From NCBI RefSeq assembly GCF_003428155.1, contig NZ_QLIR01000015.1, positions 1-32,000 on the forward strand: a DNA stretch of 32,000 bases, given 5' to 3'. A program made the translations under genes and the position numbers. The DNA comes from Fastidiosibacter lacustris. Lineage in GTDB: Bacteria > Pseudomonadota > Gammaproteobacteria > Francisellales > Francisellaceae. The notes beneath the pieces are model-generated. The model was not told the DNA's origin. It did not search any database and was given only the letters and a program-made list of their open reading frames with translations. Shown here piece after piece: positions 453 to 31,913 of this stretch (positions are counted from its first letter, which is position 1; every line of letters starts with the position of its first letter).

Positions 453-1025
453 ATGAACAGGCAAATGGGCCTCACAGTTTTTGCACTTGCAACATTTTTG
501 AGTGGATGCAGCTTTCTTTTGCCATCCAAAAAGATTGAGCGTAATGACCAGTGGTCATCTTTTGATAGTATTCAACAGGTTTACGATAAAGTCACTCCAA
601 ATAAAACAAGTGTAAATGAGTTAAAAAATATGGGTTTTGATCCATACGCGGCCAATAATGTTAAGATTGAAAATTACTTAGATACACGTATTCGTTTTGA
701 CCCTTTGAGTACAGGTAAGAATATTCCTGCTCCTGTTGCCAAATGTTTAAGCATGTTTAAGCATTGCCAGGCATACGTTGTCAATGTCGATTACGACTAT
801 GAAAAACGTATTGGTAATGTCTTTCTTGATTTAACGAGTTTTCGTCGAGAAACAATGAAAGAAGGCTGGGGGTTTCAAGCAGTATTTATTATTCAAGATG
901 AGCTTGTCGTCTATAAGCTATGGTCAGGTGAGCCTAAACGTAAAGCCTATATTGATGAGATTCGCCCATTGGGACCACTGCAAAGTTTAGATGATTTAAT
1001 CACAGGAGCTGCTATTTCTTTCTAA
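453..1025 (+). CDS. Putative lipoprotein, unknown function
   Basis: 190-aa ORF. The N-terminus MNRQMGLTVFALATFLSGCSF has a signal peptide plus lipobox (LSGC). AAGGA lies 8 nt upstream of the ATG. No family recognised by eye. Confidence 0.6.
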   Translation: MNRQMGLTVFALATFLSGCSFLLPSKKIERNDQWSSFDSIQQVYDKVTPNKTSVNELKNMGFDPYAANNVKIENYLDTRIRFDPLSTGKNIPAPVAKCLSMFKHCQAYVVNVDYDYEKRIGNVFLDLTSFRRETMKEGWGFQAVFIIQDELVVYKLWSGEPKRKAYIDEIRPLGPLQSLDDLITGAAISF

Positions 1026-22974: not shown

Positions 22975-23475
22975 ATGAAAAAGATAATTTTACCCATAAC
23001 CTTAGCTTTAATTTCCAGTGAGGTTTTTGCTGACGCTTATGATGCATCTGGGAATTATATTCCAAGTGGTCAAACCACTCCAAGATACGAAACTAAAATG
23101 GTTGTACACAAGTATCAATATGCAGGGCAATATATTAATGACCTTAAATTGGTCAATTTTATAGACTATTATTTGAGCTTATATCCATCGGGGTTAACTG
23201 ATCTTTATTTTAAGGGTTTTTCACCCCAACAGGCAGAAGAGTCAACTGTATATGATATTCAGGAAACTAGTATTATAAACGACAGCAATAAACTAATGAC
23301 TTTTAATGAGTTTAAAACTTGGGCTTTGCACAACGTTAGTCCTAATAGTAAAGGGCTGGAAAAGTTACAACAATTAGATGAAGCAACTTTTATACAAAAA
23401 GTTGTTCAAGCGCAACAAATTTTAAACAAAACAAATAATGATGTGATTAGTATAAACACCCCGAAAGTCAAATAG
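22975..23475 (+). CDS. Secreted hypothetical protein (orphan)
   Basis: 166 aa. AAGGAGG lies just upstream of the ATG. Sec-type signal peptide MKKIILPITLALISSEVFA/DAY. No family recognised. The stop codon lies 2 nt from the IS end. Confidence 0.55.
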   Translation: MKKIILPITLALISSEVFADAYDASGNYIPSGQTTPRYETKMVVHKYQYAGQYINDLKLVNFIDYYLSLYPSGLTDLYFKGFSPQQAEESTVYDIQETSIINDSNKLMTFNEFKTWALHNVSPNSKGLEKLQQLDEATFIQKVVQAQQILNKTNNDVISINTPKVK

Positions 23476-23477
23476 CC

Positions 23478-24036
23478 GGTAGTGTCTTACTTTAGCGTTT
23501 TAGATATTTCTACCCCATTCAATACGGTTAATGTAAAGCCCGATAACGGTATCGTGCATTAACTCGCTTTTTGAAAAGCAGATACTTTTCCTGGCAAATT
23601 GCTTTATTCTGGTTCTAAATGTTAAAAATTTGCGTTCAATCTTCTGTGTATTACGTTTCCCTATATCATGATATTCACCGGGAATAAAGCTCCGGTTACA
23701 TTTCAACAATCTAAAGGCTTTTTTTATCGTATTAATCACGGTTTTTGTGCTAGCTTTTAAAACACGTGCTATATCTCGTATACCACTACCATTGCTACAC
23801 ATATCAATAATTTTTTCTTTTATCTTGGGCAGCCGACCTAGTGCTTTATATTCAAGTTGAAAGTACTTTCTGCAACCTTGACAGGGATATCTTTGCGTAC
23901 CATTTGGACTAGATTTCAATTGGTTTTTACCTGATTTAACTGTTTTTATTGAGTTGCAATTCCTGTAACGTACATCAATTTTTGCCATTTTTGATTTGGG
24001 ATTATAAAAACAAATGTGCCAGATGATAACACTACC
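23478..24036 (-). mobile_element. IS1-family element, internally deleted (559 bp)
   Basis: Terminal inverted repeats start GGTAGTGT (23478-23485) and its reverse complement ACACTACC (24029-24036), which is an IS1-type terminus. It encloses a single InsA/InsB-related ORF. No flanking direct repeat is visible. Confidence 0.75.
23500..23988 (-). CDS. IS1-family InsA-like protein fused in frame to the InsB C-terminal tail; DDE core missing
   Basis: 162 aa. RYPCQGCRKYFQLEY...KIIDMCSNGSGIRDIARVLKASTKTVINTIKK resembles E. coli InsA. NTQKIERKFLTFRTRIKQFARKSICFSKSELMHDTVIGLYIN resembles the last 45 aa or so of InsB. About 70 residues of a full InsAB' are absent. Confidence 0.7.
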   Translation of the reverse strand: MAKIDVRYRNCNSIKTVKSGKNQLKSSPNGTQRYPCQGCRKYFQLEYKALGRLPKIKEKIIDMCSNGSGIRDIARVLKASTKTVINTIKKAFRLLKCNRSFIPGEYHDIGKRNTQKIERKFLTFRTRIKQFARKSICFSKSELMHDTVIGLYINRIEWGRNI

Positions 24037-24195: not shown

Positions 24196-25206
24196 ATGAT
24201 CGTACTATCTGGAGATGTCGGGGGCACAAATACACGCCTTCAAATAACGGAGCATCAAAGTAAAAAAGCGAAAATAATCTTTGCCAAAAAATATTTGGCA
24301 GCTGAGTTTAAAAGTCTATCTGCGATCATTGAGCAGTTTTTGGCAGAGGCTACATTTGATCGATCCAAGATTCAAGCTGTGTGTATTGCAGTTGCAGGTC
24401 CTGTTAAAAATGGAGCAATTGAATTTACGAATTTACCCTGGGGTTTAACCGAGAATGAGTTAGCAGAGGTGCTTTGTTTGGATAAAAGCAAAGTAAGATT
24501 AATTAATGATTTTACATCGATTGGTTATGGTCTAGATTCGGTAGAAAAAAACAATTTAATTTGTCTACAAAAAGCGGAAATTGATCCTGATGCGCCAATA
24601 GCCATGGTAGGGGCAGGCACAGGAATTGGGATGGGAATTGTAACTAAACATAACGGTCAAACTTTAGTCTATCCAAGCGAAGGAGGACACCAAGATTTTG
24701 CGCCAGTAGATGATGAGCAAATTGGATTATTTCAATTTTTGAAAAAGCGGCTACATCGGGTTTCAATCGAGAGAATTTGTTGTGGTCCTGGTCTTATTAA
24801 CATCTATAAATATGTCGTTGCAAATCCATTGTATAACCAGCCTGAGTCGCCAGAATTAAAGCGAGATATGCACAAAGGGATTGACCATGCTCAGCTTATT
24901 ACTCAGTATGCGTTGGAAAAAGGTGATCCTATGGCGTTAAGAGCCGTGGATATATTTATTCGTGTATATGGTGCAGTTGCAGGTGATATGGCACTGGTTA
25001 CTTTACCAAAAGGTGGATTGTATATTGTTGGTGGAATTGCACCTAAAATTATTACACAAATGCAGGATGGTCGTTTCATGAAAACCTTTCAAGATAAGGG
25101 GAGGTTATCTGGTTTAATGAAAGAAATTCCTATTTTTGTTGTTATGGATACTGACGTTGGTATCAAGGGGGCTGCCGAATTTGCGTTATCATTGTGCAAA
25201 AAATAA
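24196..25206 (+). CDS. glk: Glucokinase
   Basis: 336 aa. LSGDVGGTNTRL, INDFTSIGYG, GAGTGIGMG and EGGHQDFAP align with E. coli Glk over the full length. Confidence 0.9.
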   Translation: MIVLSGDVGGTNTRLQITEHQSKKAKIIFAKKYLAAEFKSLSAIIEQFLAEATFDRSKIQAVCIAVAGPVKNGAIEFTNLPWGLTENELAEVLCLDKSKVRLINDFTSIGYGLDSVEKNNLICLQKAEIDPDAPIAMVGAGTGIGMGIVTKHNGQTLVYPSEGGHQDFAPVDDEQIGLFQFLKKRLHRVSIERICCGPGLINIYKYVVANPLYNQPESPELKRDMHKGIDHAQLITQYALEKGDPMALRAVDIFIRVYGAVAGDMALVTLPKGGLYIVGGIAPKIITQMQDGRFMKTFQDKGRLSGLMKEIPIFVVMDTDVGIKGAAEFALSLCKK

Positions 25207-25237
25207 TCCTGGCAATTTTACCAATATCCTATATGAT

Positions 25238-25261
25238 ACCCATGCAAAATGGGTTTATTTT
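25238..25261 (+). terminator. Possible intrinsic terminator after glk
   Basis: ACCCAT (25238-25243), loop GCAAA, ATGGGT (25249-25254), followed by TTATTTT. The stem is short (6 bp) so it is weak. Confidence 0.4.
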
Positions 25262-25308
25262 AAAACGTCCAATTTGATTATATATAGACGGTTAATGAAG
25301 GTAAAAAT

Positions 25309-26463
25309 ATGCAGAAAATATTAAAACAACCAATAGACTTAAAAAGTGTATTGGTCTTAACGTTGACTCCTATTGCTGCTGTTATTTTTATTCCATATTA
25401 TGCAATTAGCTATGGATTTTCAGCAGCAGATTGGTTTTGGTTTAGTTTTTTTATGATAGCAACTGGAGTTTCGATTACAGCGGGTTACCATCGATTATGG
25501 GCTCATCGTGCTTATAAGGCAAAAGCACCATTGAAGATATTCTTCATGTTGTTTGGTGCAGCTGCGCTACAAAACAGCATTATCAAATGGTCCTCAGATC
25601 ATCGTAAACATCATCGTTTTGTCGATGATAAAGAAATGGACCCTTATGCAGCAACAAAAGGCTTTTGGTATAGTCACTTTACATGGATGTTACGTCATTT
25701 ACCTAAAAAAGTGGCGCAAGTTGAGAACGTAAGTGATTTAGAAAATGATAAAATTGTTGCTTTTCAGCATAAATATTACGTTCTATTAGCAATTTTTATG
25801 TGCGTGATTTTGCCCATACTTATTGGTGCGAGCTACGGTAGTATTGGTGGTTGTTTGTTATTAGCAGGATTATTGCGTTTGGTGCTCAATCATCACTTTA
25901 CTTTTTTTATTAATTCACTTGCACACATTTGGGGTAAGCAAAAATTTTCAGACGAAAACACCGCGCGTGATAATCCAATCTTGTCGTTAGTTACTTATGG
26001 GGAGGGTTATCACAACTATCATCACAAATATGCAGGTGACTATCGCAATGGAGTGAAGTGGTACGACTTTGATCCATCTAAGTGGTTGATTTATGGAGCA
26101 TCCAAAATTGGTTGGGCATATGATTTAAAAACAATACCTAAGCCTGCTATTGAGGCAGCAAGAGCATCCATGCAACTAAAAGAAGCACAAAGTAGAATTA
26201 AAGACAAACGCTATATTAAGCTCGTCGTTGACTTTGAGAAAAGGTTGGAGGATCAGTATAAAGTGCTTTTTGATAGTATCAAGGAGTGGGCAAAAGCCAA
26301 ACAAGCTTGGTTACAAGCTAAAAAAGATAAGTTATCTGCCACCCAAATTTTACAGTTAAAAGAGCACTATAAGTCATTGAAACAGAAATTTAAAACCGAA
26401 CGTAAATTATGGCGCACACTTTCAAACTCATCTGTCAAGGTTGCTAAATTAAAAGTTGCATAG
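25309..26463 (+). CDS. Membrane acyl-lipid/acyl-CoA delta-9-type fatty acid desaturase
   Basis: 384 aa. Three histidine boxes HRLWAH, HRKHH and HNYHH in the canonical order, with TM hairpins between them. The C-terminal 95 aa or so form a Lys-rich, coiled-coil-like tail. Confidence 0.85.
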   Translation: MQKILKQPIDLKSVLVLTLTPIAAVIFIPYYAISYGFSAADWFWFSFFMIATGVSITAGYHRLWAHRAYKAKAPLKIFFMLFGAAALQNSIIKWSSDHRKHHRFVDDKEMDPYAATKGFWYSHFTWMLRHLPKKVAQVENVSDLENDKIVAFQHKYYVLLAIFMCVILPILIGASYGSIGGCLLLAGLLRLVLNHHFTFFINSLAHIWGKQKFSDENTARDNPILSLVTYGEGYHNYHHKYAGDYRNGVKWYDFDPSKWLIYGASKIGWAYDLKTIPKPAIEAARASMQLKEAQSRIKDKRYIKLVVDFEKRLEDQYKVLFDSIKEWAKAKQAWLQAKKDKLSATQILQLKEHYKSLKQKFKTERKLWRTLSNSSVKVAKLKVA

Positions 26464-28646: not shown

Positions 28647-29492
28647 TTATTTAACGCCTAGCTCAATCAATCTTTCTTGTAAAAAACTATCTGCAGTTGG
28701 GTACCTTTTGGAAAGATAAACTTCAGGTTTAGCATGCATAAAGCAAGGAATAGACATCCGATCAATCCCTAGTGCTTCACCTTCTGGTTTAATAACACGG
28801 TGTTTTGTCGCAATGTACTCAAAATCAGTCATTTCTTGTAACATATCGCCGATGTTAATAATGATTGATTGTGGTTTGCAAAGTACCTCATACCATTTAT
28901 CTTCTTTATGCGAATAAACTTCTAATCCTGGAGAAGATGCAACAGGTAGTAATGTAATGAGATTGATATCTTCATGTGCAGCAGCTCGAATTGCACCTGG
29001 TTCTTCATCACCTTGGATAGCAGGATAGTGCAGAATTCTAAAGAGTGTACGTTCTAGCGACAGCGCATCAACTAAAGGCATTGCGAGCTTGTTAGATACT
29101 GCATGATCCATATGACTATCTATCCATTGCAATAGTGTTTTTCCTAACGTGAAAAGTTGATTAAACAGTTCTCGTGCTTGATTGGAAACTTCTTTTGGAT
29201 ATCGTCCATGTGGAAAATATAAATGGAAGTAATGCTTAATATCACGAGTTATTTCACCTTTGGCGATTTCAGAGACATCAAGTGGAAAGTAACCATCTTG
29301 TGTATCCTTATTATAATAATAGTTTTTTGCAGCATCAGAGTTAATGAATTGACGCCACTCGGTATAAACTTCTTCAACTAACTGCCAATCAATAGGATGT
29401 TTCTCTAATACTGCAAACCCCGTTTGTTTTAATGAGTCAGTAAAAAGTTTTGTAGCATTTGCTGCATAAAAATCAACGTTTAAAATTTTCAT
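28647..29492 (-). CDS. 2-oxoglutarate/Fe(II)-dependent oxygenase (isopenicillin N synthase-like family)
   Basis: 281 aa. Facial-triad context AAHEDINLITLL (HxD) ... ATKHRV (distal His), with RMSIPCF as the 2OG-binding Arg-x-Ser. Substrate unknown. Confidence 0.7.
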   Translation of the reverse strand: MKILNVDFYAANATKLFTDSLKQTGFAVLEKHPIDWQLVEEVYTEWRQFINSDAAKNYYYNKDTQDGYFPLDVSEIAKGEITRDIKHYFHLYFPHGRYPKEVSNQARELFNQLFTLGKTLLQWIDSHMDHAVSNKLAMPLVDALSLERTLFRILHYPAIQGDEEPGAIRAAAHEDINLITLLPVASSPGLEVYSHKEDKWYEVLCKPQSIIINIGDMLQEMTDFEYIATKHRVIKPEGEALGIDRMSIPCFMHAKPEVYLSKRYPTADSFLQERLIELGVK

Positions 29493-29754
29493 AAAATACC
29501 TTATGATTAAACCAAGTTTTGGCTATCCTAAAGAGCGAGTAAGATGATGTCAATAAATGGTAAAAGAGATGATAATAAATACCATTTTTTTTTACTTAGA
29601 TTGATTTTCTTTTAGGTTTTTTGGTAAAAATTTGCTAGAATACTGCAAATTTCTGACACCCGTATCCTTTTCATAAATTACTATATAATGATTTATTGTT
29701 AATAAATTGTGGTTGTTTATGTTAGGTATGCAAAAGTAAAAGGTATATGAGAGA

Positions 29755-30708
29755 ATGGCATTAGAGCATTTATTGCATCCAACAACAGTGAATAATCAAG
29801 AAAGAATTGGCAATCAAGCAAAGATTACTTTAGAGCCTTTGGAGCGTGGCTTTGGTCATACCTTAGGTTTTTCGTTAAAGCAAATCATGTTACACGTTTT
29901 ATCAGGTGCATCGTTAACAAAAGTTAAATTTAACGATGGTGTGAATAGTGAGGTCAAGTTAGCAACAACTGAATCAGTTGAAGAGTTATTGCTTAATTTG
30001 CAAATCATTAAGTTTAAACTGGATTCAGCTCATACCACTGGTAATATAAGTATTAAATTATCAGGAAAAGCTCGTGAAGTATACGCTGCAGACTTAACCT
30101 TATCAGAAGGTGTAGAGATTTTAAATCCTGATGTGCTTATTTGCCAATATGTAGGAAAAGATAAGCTTAGCATTGAAGGATGGATAGAGTCAGGTGCTGG
30201 TTATAAACCTGCAAATCAGAACTTTATAGATGGTTACTTTATGTTAGATGCTTCTTTTTCACCTGTTGTCAGTCTCAATTACAACGTTGAAAACGCGCGT
30301 GTTGCACAAAGAACTGACTTGGACAAACTTATTTTAGATGTGCAAACAGATGGCAGCTTGACACCTTCGGAGGCATTGAGTTTAGCGGCACAAAAGATTC
30401 AATCTCAAATGTCTAGAATTGTTGATGAAGAAGCATTAGCTGAACGTTTGCACATTGAAGAAGAACCAAAAATTGATCCGTTTTTATTAAAAACAGTAGA
30501 AGAGTTAGACTTAACTGTGCGTTCTGCAAACTGCTTGAAGTCTGAGAATATTCGTTATATTGGTGAGCTTGTTCAACGCACGGAATCTGAGCTTATGAAA
30601 ACACCAAACTTTGGACGTAAATCTTTAAATGAAATTAAAGAAAAACTTTCTTCGTATGGATACTCATTAGGCACAATTGTTGGAGATTGGTCAAGGGATT
30701 TAATATAG
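29755..30708 (+). CDS. rpoA: DNA-directed RNA polymerase alpha subunit paralog (divergent, outside the ribosomal protein operon)
   Basis: 317 aa, collinear with E. coli Rpo[13 protein letters not shown] is identical, [12 protein letters not shown] is present, and the alpha-CTD reads [10 protein letters not shown]...[10 protein letters not shown]...[13 protein letters not shown]. Conserved NTD positions are altered (see findings). No rpsD/rplQ neighbours. Confidence 0.85.
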
Positions 30709-30845: not shown

Positions 30846-31036
30846 ATGCGCTTCAAGCGTTTGGTAGAAGCAAGGGTGGCTTTATCAATATGATCCTGTA
30901 CATGAAGAAAAAATTGCAAACAACTGCTTGAAGCGTTATTTTTTCTTGATTTGCATAACATGAAAAAGCATCTCAAGCAGCTGACAAGTAGTTTTAATGG
31001 GAACGGAGTATACGAGTGACAAACTAAGACACTACC
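30846..31036 (+). mobile_element. Decayed IS1-family 3' end / solo terminal repeat
   Basis: The reverse complement of 31017-31036 is GGTAGTGTCTTAGTTTGTCA. It matches the 23478 terminus GGTAGTGTCTTACTTTAGCG at 12/12 for the first 12 nt and 16/20 overall. Inward there are only short, frame-broken InsB-tail-like fragments. The inner boundary is uncertain. Confidence 0.4.
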
Positions 31037-31055: not shown

Positions 31056-31913
31056 TTACCTTAAAGCAATAAGCGCTCCAACACCACTGAACAAACATCC
31101 AAATAGTAAATAAAAGGTAGGAGCAGAATCTCCAATGATTACTGAGGAAATACCGCCTATCGCGGGGAAAAGTGCTACCATATAGCTGCTTGCAGATGCT
31201 CCGATGCGCGCAACTAATTTAAGATAAAACATCCATGCAGTAAAAGAGGAAAAGACAATTAAAAACATCAAAGCCCCGAGGTAGGAAAAGGATATTGGCA
31301 ATGTAAAGCTCTGTTTTTGTATCAGACAAACCATAAGTGAAAATATAAAAGCGACGGCAAAACCAATGCTATTTGAATACATCGCATTCACACCACATCG
31401 TACATTTCTTGCGGAGGCAACATCACCAATCGCCGTCAATAGCGTTCCAAGCAATGCAATGGCTATTCCCTTTAAATTGCTCACTCCAGCGCCATTCATT
31501 AACAAAGGATAAACAAGTATGGAGACACCCATAATGCCCATCGAGCCTCCAACCAGAATTCTAGGATGAAGACGGTCTCCTAGACATATGCGAAGCGCAA
31601 TTGGAGTCATAACAGTTTTGAGTGAAAATATCAACGTTACAAGTGCAGCAGAAACCCATATTGTCGCATAATACAGGCAAATATAACTCAAGGCTAGGTT
31701 GCATATTCCAAAGCTCGCTATAGGGAGAAAATCCTGTCGAGAAAGCCTTCCCCTAGGTTTTATAAGATACAAAAAAGCAACAAACAATAAAACGGTTCCG
31801 CCCAATCGATACGTCAGCGATAATTCAAGGTTCACAGGGGTTCCTTGAATTTTGATGACGACAAAGTTCACTCCCCAAACAATGGCGCAAAAGGCGTACA
31901 TAAAAACTGTCAT
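31056..31913 (-). CDS. EamA/DMT-superfamily transporter
   Basis: 285 aa, about 10 TM segments in two repeats. The N-terminus FCAIVWGVNFVVIK is typical of EamA domains. GC is about 45-48% in three sampled 60-nt lines, above the window background. Confidence 0.75.
   Translation of the reverse strand: MTVFMYAFCAIVWGVNFVVIKIQGTPVNLELSLTYRLGGTVLLFVAFLYLIKPRGRLSRQDFLPIASFGICNLALSYICLYYATIWVSAALVTLIFSLKTVMTPIALRICLGDRLHPRILVGGSMGIMGVSILVYPLLMNGAGVSNLKGIAIALLGTLLTAIGDVASARNVRCGVNAMYSNSIGFAVAFIFSLMVCLIQKQSFTLPISFSYLGALMFLIVFSSFTAWMFYLKLVARIGASASSYMVALFPAIGGISSVIIGDSAPTFYLLFGCLFSGVGALIALR

Follow-up and report, generated by a model that had tools for sequence, protein, structure and literature searches.

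In Francisella, a heterodimer of two alpha subunits, alpha1 and alpha2, assembles an active RNA polymerase (RNAP). Francisella alpha2 has Q at the position of Escherichia coli R45 and by itself neither dimerizes nor supports transcription; weak activity has been reported for the alpha1 homodimer (PMC3294249). In the same genus, PigR recruits the alpha carboxy-terminal domains (αCTDs) at virulence promoters. The literature searched, up to 2026, still describes a heterodimeric alpha as unique to Francisella. Here, we analyzed a 32,000-nucleotide stretch of the Fastidiosibacter lacustris genome (contig NZ_QLIR01000015.1, positions 1 to 32,000; hereafter, the window), which carries a stand-alone open reading frame (ORF) for an alpha subunit that we refer to as rpoA2. 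Fastidiosibacteraceae, the family of F. lacustris, is the sister family of Francisellaceae and is placed by the NCBI taxonomy within Thiotrichales, with Fangia, Facilibium, Cysteiniphilum, and Caedibacter. Alignment and phylogeny identify rpoA2 as an intact gene for a Francisella-type alpha2. Its product very probably pairs with an alpha1 encoded in the ribosomal protein cluster, as an oriented heterodimer that nucleates assembly of the RNAP core.

Two other kinds of described system invite comparison. Chloroflexus spp. and Streptomyces avermitilis have a second rpoA outside the ribosomal operon, as here, but these paralogs are reported to have no drastic changes in their dimerization or β and β' contact regions, unlike the complementary decay of the alpha2 clade described below (PMC3294249). 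The archaeal and eukaryotic Rpo3-Rpo11 pair (Rpb3-Rpb11, AC40-AC19), like alpha1 and alpha2, consists of non-identical alpha-like subunits that form an oriented platform, and in both systems only one partner has the R45 equivalent contacting the β-like subunit (PMC3294249). Alpha1 and alpha2 differ from Rpo3 and Rpo11 in that both are full-length alphas with CTDs, there are no Rpo10/Rpo12-type helpers, and they arose by a recent duplication within the gammaproteobacteria.

An alpha2-type RpoA in Fastidiosibacter lacustris

The original prediction, made from the sequence of the window, had described a full-length RpoA-like protein of 317 amino acids (aa), and profile searches agree with it. The ORF matches three Pfam domains (RNA_pol_A_CTD, 1e-27; RNA_pol_L, 4e-16; RNA_pol_A_bac, 9e-15), and the NCBIfam rpoA model NF003513 covers residues 3 to 314 with 323.2 bits, above its curated cut-off of 302 and well outside what chance would give. 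TIGR02027 gives 262.6 bits against a cut-off of 227.8. The architecture is the canonical one: an amino-terminal domain (NTD), made up of an Rpb3/Rpb11-like dimerization domain and its insert, precedes the αCTD. Its sequence and that of the NCBI entry 'DNA-directed RNA polymerase subunit alpha [Fastidiosibacter lacustris]' are 100% identical. An identical protein is encoded on contig JAMBMW010000003.1 of 'Ca. Nebulobacter yamunensis', which lives as a symbiont of Euplotes and has an average nucleotide identity of 99.4% to F. lacustris; the two rpoA2 ORFs agree at every nucleotide, and the spacer 3' of the gene differs at 1 of 347 bases. Comparison of the window rpoA2 with its counterparts in Cysteiniphilum, Caedibacter, and Facilibium gave ratios of nonsynonymous to synonymous substitution (dN/dS) of 0.05 to 0.10, with dS saturated; the gene is under purifying selection.

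These results bear on whether rpoA2 could be a paralog, redundant or in decay, whose product has dropped out of RNAP. The F. lacustris and 'Ca. Nebulobacter' genomes do contain 129 to 191 predicted pseudogenes and 25 insertion sequences (ISs), IS fragments occur in the window, and the NTD has diverged strongly from canonical alphas. Decay is nevertheless extremely unlikely given that the ORF is intact and unchanged in the symbiont contig, that dN/dS is low across genera, and that the CTD residues and the β'-side motif are kept in 32 orthologs. The promoter-like element and the Shine-Dalgarno-like site are conserved as well, and in solved structures of Francisella RNAP the orthologous protein is present as a stoichiometric subunit.

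The best PDB match of the window protein was chain B of 6WMP, 6WMR, and 6WMT, the 'alpha 2' of Francisella tularensis (residues 1 to 316 on 1 to 317; E, 4e-95). Lower scores were obtained for canonical gammaproteobacterial alphas (about 1e-73) and for F. tularensis 'alpha 1' (6WMP_A; 1.7e-41). The closest database relatives, which are 315 to 324 aa long, come from Cysteiniphilum (79% identity), Fangia and Facilibium (75%), and Caedibacter taeniospiralis (74%), followed at a greater distance by a Francisellaceae metagenome-assembled genome (63%) and Thiotrichales bacterium 19S3-7, 19S11-10, and 19X7-9 (55 to 56%).

We constructed a neighbor-joining tree, a distance method only, from 76 alphas (312 columns; 200 bootstraps), for which the reference sequences, F. 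tularensis alpha1 and the alpha of E. coli, were checked against the PDB. The window protein and 6WMP_B fall within an alpha2 clade of 32 sequences with bootstrap support of about 100%. Inside this clade, the window protein groups with Cysteiniphilum and Caedibacter (93.5%), then with Facilibium and Fangia, and then with Francisella. Alphas encoded in the ribosomal clusters of these lineages make up, together with 6WMP_A, an alpha1 clade of their own (100%). By its position in this tree, the window ORF is an ortholog of Francisella alpha2, in line with the Francisella rpoA1/rpoA2 precedent to which the original prediction had pointed.

Besides its place in the same clade, F. tularensis RpoA2 (FTT_1442c; chain B of the structures above) has in common with the window protein its length of 317 aa, the amino terminus MALE(N/H)LLHPT, K-Q at positions 44-45, the loss of GVLHEYS, the RVxxRTDLDK motif, the CTD DNA-binding residues, and a stand-alone gene outside the ribosomal cluster. 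The two proteins belong to different genera and families, and the window protein is closer to canonical alphas at CTD positions A267, V264, and E273. The organisms differ as well, that of the window being a non-pathogenic freshwater bacterium or ciliate symbiont, and the heterodimer demonstrated in Francisella is here predicted.

β-side and β'-side surfaces of the two alphas

Like canonical RpoA (E. coli; TIGR02027/NF003513), the window protein has three domains, the six αCTD residues, and a linker of equal length. The differences are concentrated in the NTD. Alignment with E. coli alpha confirmed the substitutions that had been noticed from the sequence: LRRIL, containing R44-R45, is LKQIM in the window protein, so that R45 is replaced by Q; DGVLHEYST is NDG-VNSEV, with loss of LHEYS; and QRGRGY is ESGAGY. 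In addition, A replaces R150 and F replaces N41. The claim of a shorter NTD-CTD linker had to be dropped, as the linker aligns without gaps to E. coli 236-248. The 12-residue difference in length from E. coli is accounted for by the amino terminus, the loss of 7 residues from the 160-166 loop, and the carboxy-terminal tail.

The canonical β-binding determinant (R45 and GVLHEYST at 63-70) is therefore missing from the window protein, and the same is true throughout its clade. At the position of R45, the 32 alpha2 sequences have E (16), Q (15), or S (1), but never R; N41 is replaced by F, Y, or H, and GVLHEYS is unrecognizable. In contrast, the β'-side surface (E. coli 186-210, with K200), which has been lost in alpha1, is retained in the window protein. 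The alpha2 clade keeps E. coli R191, Q194, D197, D199, and K200, and the β'-side motif RVxQRTDLDK is present in all members; R191, D197, and D199 hardly vary, and 30 of the 32 sequences have K at position 200. The alpha1 clade (22 sequences) has the opposite pattern: it keeps R44-R45, LHEY(S/C), and R150, has a deletion of 4 to 5 residues at 190-194, and has T, S, or M in place of K200.

The same complementarity emerges when the β and β' footprint segments, taken as cited in PMC3294249, are scored for identity to the canonical consensus. For E. coli 65-75, the values are 0.00 for the window protein, 0.07 for alpha2, and 0.68 to 0.76 for alpha1, whereas for 186-194 they are 0.67, 0.69, and 0.11 to 0.16, respectively; for 195-210, alpha2 scores 0.64 and alpha1 0.37. 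The dimer-interface residues listed in PMC3294249 are likewise divided, with F35, T38, and L39 kept by alpha2 and I46, S50, and Q227 by alpha1. One of the two pseudo-symmetric dimer-contact clusters would then be canonical only in a heterodimer.

A paralog interpretation would lose its footing if such NTD changes were normal for the canonical alphas of this clade. They are not, since the ribosomal-cluster alphas here keep RR and LHEYS. The changes are typical of the alpha2 clade and not of ribosomal-cluster alphas; thus, that interpretation is not refuted. The original prediction of a second alpha specialized for one position in the dimer is supported both by orthology and by the residue pattern of the alpha2 clade. 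In the arrangement that we propose, an oriented alpha1-alpha2 heterodimer would nucleate assembly of the RNAP core, with alpha2 at the β'-proximal (αII) position and alpha1 at the β-proximal (αI) position. Since alpha2 has lost R45 and LHEYS and keeps the β' surface 186-210, the β'-proximal position is the one to be expected for it, and we predict that it cannot act as the protomer that binds β.

The αCTD has followed a different course. As had been proposed, its DNA-binding determinant is retained: the equivalents of E. coli R265, N268, C269, G296, K298, and S299 are R256, N259, C260, G287, K289, and S290 in the window protein (NFGRKS and the segment upstream of it). These residues are invariant in 32/32 alpha2 sequences and also in the alpha1 clade. 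Alpha2 would contribute one of two non-identical CTDs and could still contact UP-like DNA and activators. Other CTD positions carry conserved changes specific to alpha2, namely, L295F (32/32), E261D, V287S, and R317I/V. The changes in the regions of the 261 and 287 determinants raise the question of whether alpha2 has a mainly regulatory role, with CTDs that differ in their partners or promoters, or marks an RNAP subpopulation that exists beside one built on the alpha1 homodimer. The weak activity of the alpha1 homodimer in Francisella and the recruitment of αCTDs by PigR would fit such a role. As the principal explanation, we consider it unlikely; it would supplement heterodimeric assembly rather than replace it, and the complementary decay of the NTDs points first to a role in assembly.

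Alpha-like proteins of unusual architecture were also encountered. One of them, from 'Ca. Termititenax persephonae' (P0343; GBR76562.1; 526 aa), has tandem alpha NTDs followed by one CTD. Its first NTD is divergent and has no HEFS motif, and its second is canonical, so that the protein looks like a covalently fused, subfunctionalized alpha 'heterodimer'. Two further proteins, P0367 (664 aa; JGI) and P0334 (569 aa; ENA), likewise have two alpha NTDs before one CTD; the two NTD copies of P0334 are identical and may be an assembly artifact. Another, P0335 (1031 aa), encoded on a 22-kb ENA metagenome contig, has a signal-peptide-like amino terminus and about 12 tandem αCTD-like helix-hairpin-helix repeats, with no alpha NTD.

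The predicted partner alpha1

In four related genomes, including two from the family of F. lacustris, an alpha1 in the canonical cluster is accompanied by an alpha2. In Facilibium subflavum, a single assembly carries a ribosomal-cluster alpha1 (QLIT01000115.1) and a stand-alone alpha2 (QLIT01000050.1), and the same combination occurs in one assembly of Thiotrichales bacterium 19S3-7. Both subunits are also present in Fangia hongkongensis, for which both proteins are named, and in Thiotrichales bacterium 19S11-10. The setting of the alpha1 gene in this lineage is S13-S11-S4-rpoA-L17.

We looked for the alpha1 of F. lacustris with two protein searches, one with the verified F. tularensis alpha1 as query and one with a profile of alpha1-like proteins. 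They listed alpha1 proteins of Francisella, Allofrancisella, Pseudofrancisella, Facilibium, Fangia, and Thiotrichales. Cluster look-ups for 20 unnamed alpha1 candidates gave no match to Fastidiosibacter, Cysteiniphilum, or Caedibacter, and an all-against-representatives search found only two alpha1-type 50% clusters and no extra divergent lineage. The CTD peptide ANCLKA[QE]N proved generic, with at least 600 matches in canonical gamma- and betaproteobacteria. A scan of metagenome contigs for an alpha1-specific motif yielded 10 loci; it was not possible to assign any of these to F. lacustris. In two of the contigs, Ga0255288_1004333 and JACCDZ010255896.1 (1540-2511), an alpha1 rpoA 79% identical to that of Fangia lies in the order S13-S11-S4-rpoA-L17. 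These genes could belong to the Fastidiosibacter/Cysteiniphilum group, and since both are absent from the alpha1 match lists, those lists are incomplete.

Several results weigh against the heterodimer proposed for F. lacustris. First, no Fastidiosibacter alpha1 was found among the best 120 matches listed in the two alpha1-aimed searches, and no named Cysteiniphilum or Caedibacter alpha1 was among the matches listed either. Second, the window protein and Francisella alpha2 share only 49.7% identity, little more than the 46 to 48% seen between the window protein and canonical alphas. Third, sisterhood of the alpha1 and alpha2 clades received 8% support in a distance-based tree in which both lie on long branches. 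Because the two were not recovered as sisters, a single duplication is not demonstrated; the deeper position of the two Francisella alphas was likewise not resolved in a 2011 study (PMC3294249). Finally, the assignment of surfaces to β and β' is drawn from mutational and footprinting work on E. coli and in vitro work on Francisella.

The first of these points leaves room for the possibility that rpoA2 is the sole alpha gene, an essential rpoA that was relocated and forms a homodimer, alpha1 having been lost in the sub-clade of Fastidiosibacter, Cysteiniphilum, and Caedibacter. Neither the matches listed nor the cluster look-ups included an alpha1 from these three genera. Still, we regard this scenario as very unlikely. 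The window protein carries Q in place of R45 and lacks LHEYS, exactly as in the alpha2 of genomes that also have alpha1, with no sign of reversion. Moreover, Francisella alpha2 alone neither dimerizes nor supports transcription, Fangia and Facilibium of the same family have both genes, and the alpha1 lists are incomplete. A version in which alpha1 was lost or replaced in these three genera and an alpha2-type protein homodimerizes as the sole alpha and binds β in a non-canonical manner is, in our view, highly improbable. F. lacustris is bracketed by the genomes with both alphas, and no β-side position of the window protein has reverted. We therefore infer that F. lacustris does have an alpha1, with which the product of rpoA2 would form the oriented heterodimer.

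Neighborhood of rpoA2 and distribution of paired alphas

The features of the locus are collected in Table 1. As originally predicted, rpoA2 lies outside the rpsM-rpsK-rpsD-rpoA-rplQ cluster, being flanked by genes for a 2-oxoglutarate (2OG) oxygenase and an EamA transporter, and the 32-kb window contains no ribosomal protein gene. The gene is stand-alone and monocistronic in the window as well as in Cysteiniphilum, Caedibacter, Facilibium, and Thiotrichales bacterium 19S3-7, in neighborhoods that otherwise vary. The divergent pair of 2OG oxygenase and rpoA2 genes is found also in Cysteiniphilum halobium. A pair of genes for a glucokinase (glk) and a fatty-acid desaturase lies upstream of rpoA2 both in the window (24196-26463) and in Caedibacter taeniospiralis, although the intervening genes differ. 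These shared neighbors are remnants of the ancestral rpoA2 neighborhood.

Table 1. Positions of rpoA2, its coding and control elements, and its flanking features in the window
Feature	Position	Strand	Basis
2OG-Fe(II) oxygenase, divergently transcribed	28647..29492	-	Pfam 2OG-FeII_Oxy, DIOX_N
Extended -10-like TGcTAGAAT, ~105 nt before ATG	29633..29641	+	Promoter-like; function inferred
Shine-Dalgarno-like AAGGT, 10 nt before ATG	29740..29744	+	Direct reading
rpoA2 coding sequence, RNAP alpha2	29755..30708	+	ATG start, 317 aa plus stop
Alpha NTD (dimerization/assembly), aa 27-218, with insert domain, aa 71-169	29833..30408	+	Pfam RNA_pol_L, RNA_pol_A_bac
Codons K42-Q43, equivalents of E. coli R44-R45	29878..29883	+	Alignment
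aa 61-67 DGVNSEV, degenerate GVLHEYST (β-protected segment 65-75)	29935..29955	+	Consensus identity 0.00
aa 182-191, retained β'-side motif (E. coli R191-K200)	30298..30327	+	Alignment
Alpha CTD, aa 235-299	30457..30651	+	Pfam RNA_pol_A_CTD 1e-27
CTD DNA-binding determinant, two segments	30511-30540 and 30607-30624 (NFGRKS)	+	Alignment
Probable IS4/IS5-type left-end remnant	30896..31019	+	One weak nucleotide match
EamA transporter, downstream neighbor	31056-31913	-	ORF and family match

The element TTTG[C/A/T]TA[G/A]AAT (29631-29641 in the window), preceded by a T-rich block, occurs upstream of rpoA2 in Fastidiosibacter, Cysteiniphilum, Caedibacter, and Facilibium. A consensus promoter scan did not call TGcTAGAAT because the -35 region is weak. 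The Shine-Dalgarno-like site is conserved as AAAGGGTATAT in Cysteiniphilum and Caedibacter. We expect that rpoA2 would be transcribed alone, from its own conserved extended -10-like promoter. A leader RNA or riboswitch in the leader of about 105 nucleotides was considered and rejected, as the leader has no Rfam match and folds no better than shuffled sequences (z = -0.12).

A decayed IS end had also been proposed as a neighbor of rpoA2. Of the two neighbors named, the divergent 2OG oxygenase is supported by Pfam, whereas the IS end rests on one match: positions 30896-30985 are 73% identical over 90 nucleotides (E, 6e-4) to the Francisella halioticida plasmid pFHSM2. The match takes in the left end and about 12 initial codons of a DDE_Tnp_1 transposase ORF starting MRTMKKHFNQLTES, and a 19-codon stub ORF at 30960-31019 (MKKHLKQLTSSF...) mirrors the start of that ORF. 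The stub region (30896-31019) has no Pfam match in any frame and is not repeated elsewhere in the window. An IS remnant in the 347 bp that separate rpoA2 from the EamA gene is thus plausible, but the case for it is weak. A clearer fragment, of IS1, lies 6 kb upstream (23500-23988, minus strand; 162 aa) and consists of HTH_Tnp_IS1 and the tail of DDE_Tnp_IS1; this truncated copy fits the numbers of ISs and pseudogenes in these genomes. Beside it is a 166-aa ORF without a family match (22975-23475, plus strand).

Mobile-element debris next to a stand-alone gene could suggest that rpoA2 is a xenolog, that is, a foreign rpoA acquired horizontally and not a vertically inherited alpha2. The IS-like remnant directly downstream and the variation of the neighborhood between genera would agree with such an origin. 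We give this scenario almost no credence. The branching of the alpha2 clade follows the structure of the family (Cysteiniphilum and Caedibacter, then Facilibium/Fangia, then Francisella), the divergent 2OG oxygenase is shared with Cysteiniphilum, and Caedibacter resembles the window in having the glk and desaturase genes upstream of rpoA2. In addition, both Francisella alphas fall inside the gammaproteobacteria in a published analysis (PMC3294249).

The remaining genes of the window include feoB, wrbA, priA, carA, dut, pgsA, yajC-secDF, clcA, secB, mfd, tag, and era, together with genes for an MFS pump and an HlyD-type protein, in addition to the IS1 fragment, glk, and the desaturase gene mentioned above. 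A 190-aa ORF at 453-1025 (plus strand) has no NCBIfam or Pfam match.

The kind of gene described here is already known. What is new is that the alpha1/alpha2 pairs identified above extend the predicted two-alpha polymerase beyond the genus Francisella, to named Fastidiosibacteraceae genomes and unnamed Thiotrichales lineages. In the literature searched up to 2026, we found no paper mentioning a two-alpha RNAP in other genera or in Fastidiosibacteraceae. Because both genes carry the bare annotation 'RNA polymerase subunit alpha', counts of single-copy markers can be distorted. The complementary pattern, with the β side kept by alpha1 and the β' side by alpha2, is conserved across lineages; therefore, the split predates the genus Francisella and has been kept stably since. 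Alpha1 and alpha2 represent a bacterial parallel to the Rpb3/Rpb11 heterodimer. F. lacustris is non-pathogenic and can be cultured, and outside select-agent restrictions the predicted oriented heterodimer, with its possibly non-equivalent CTDs, could be studied in this species.

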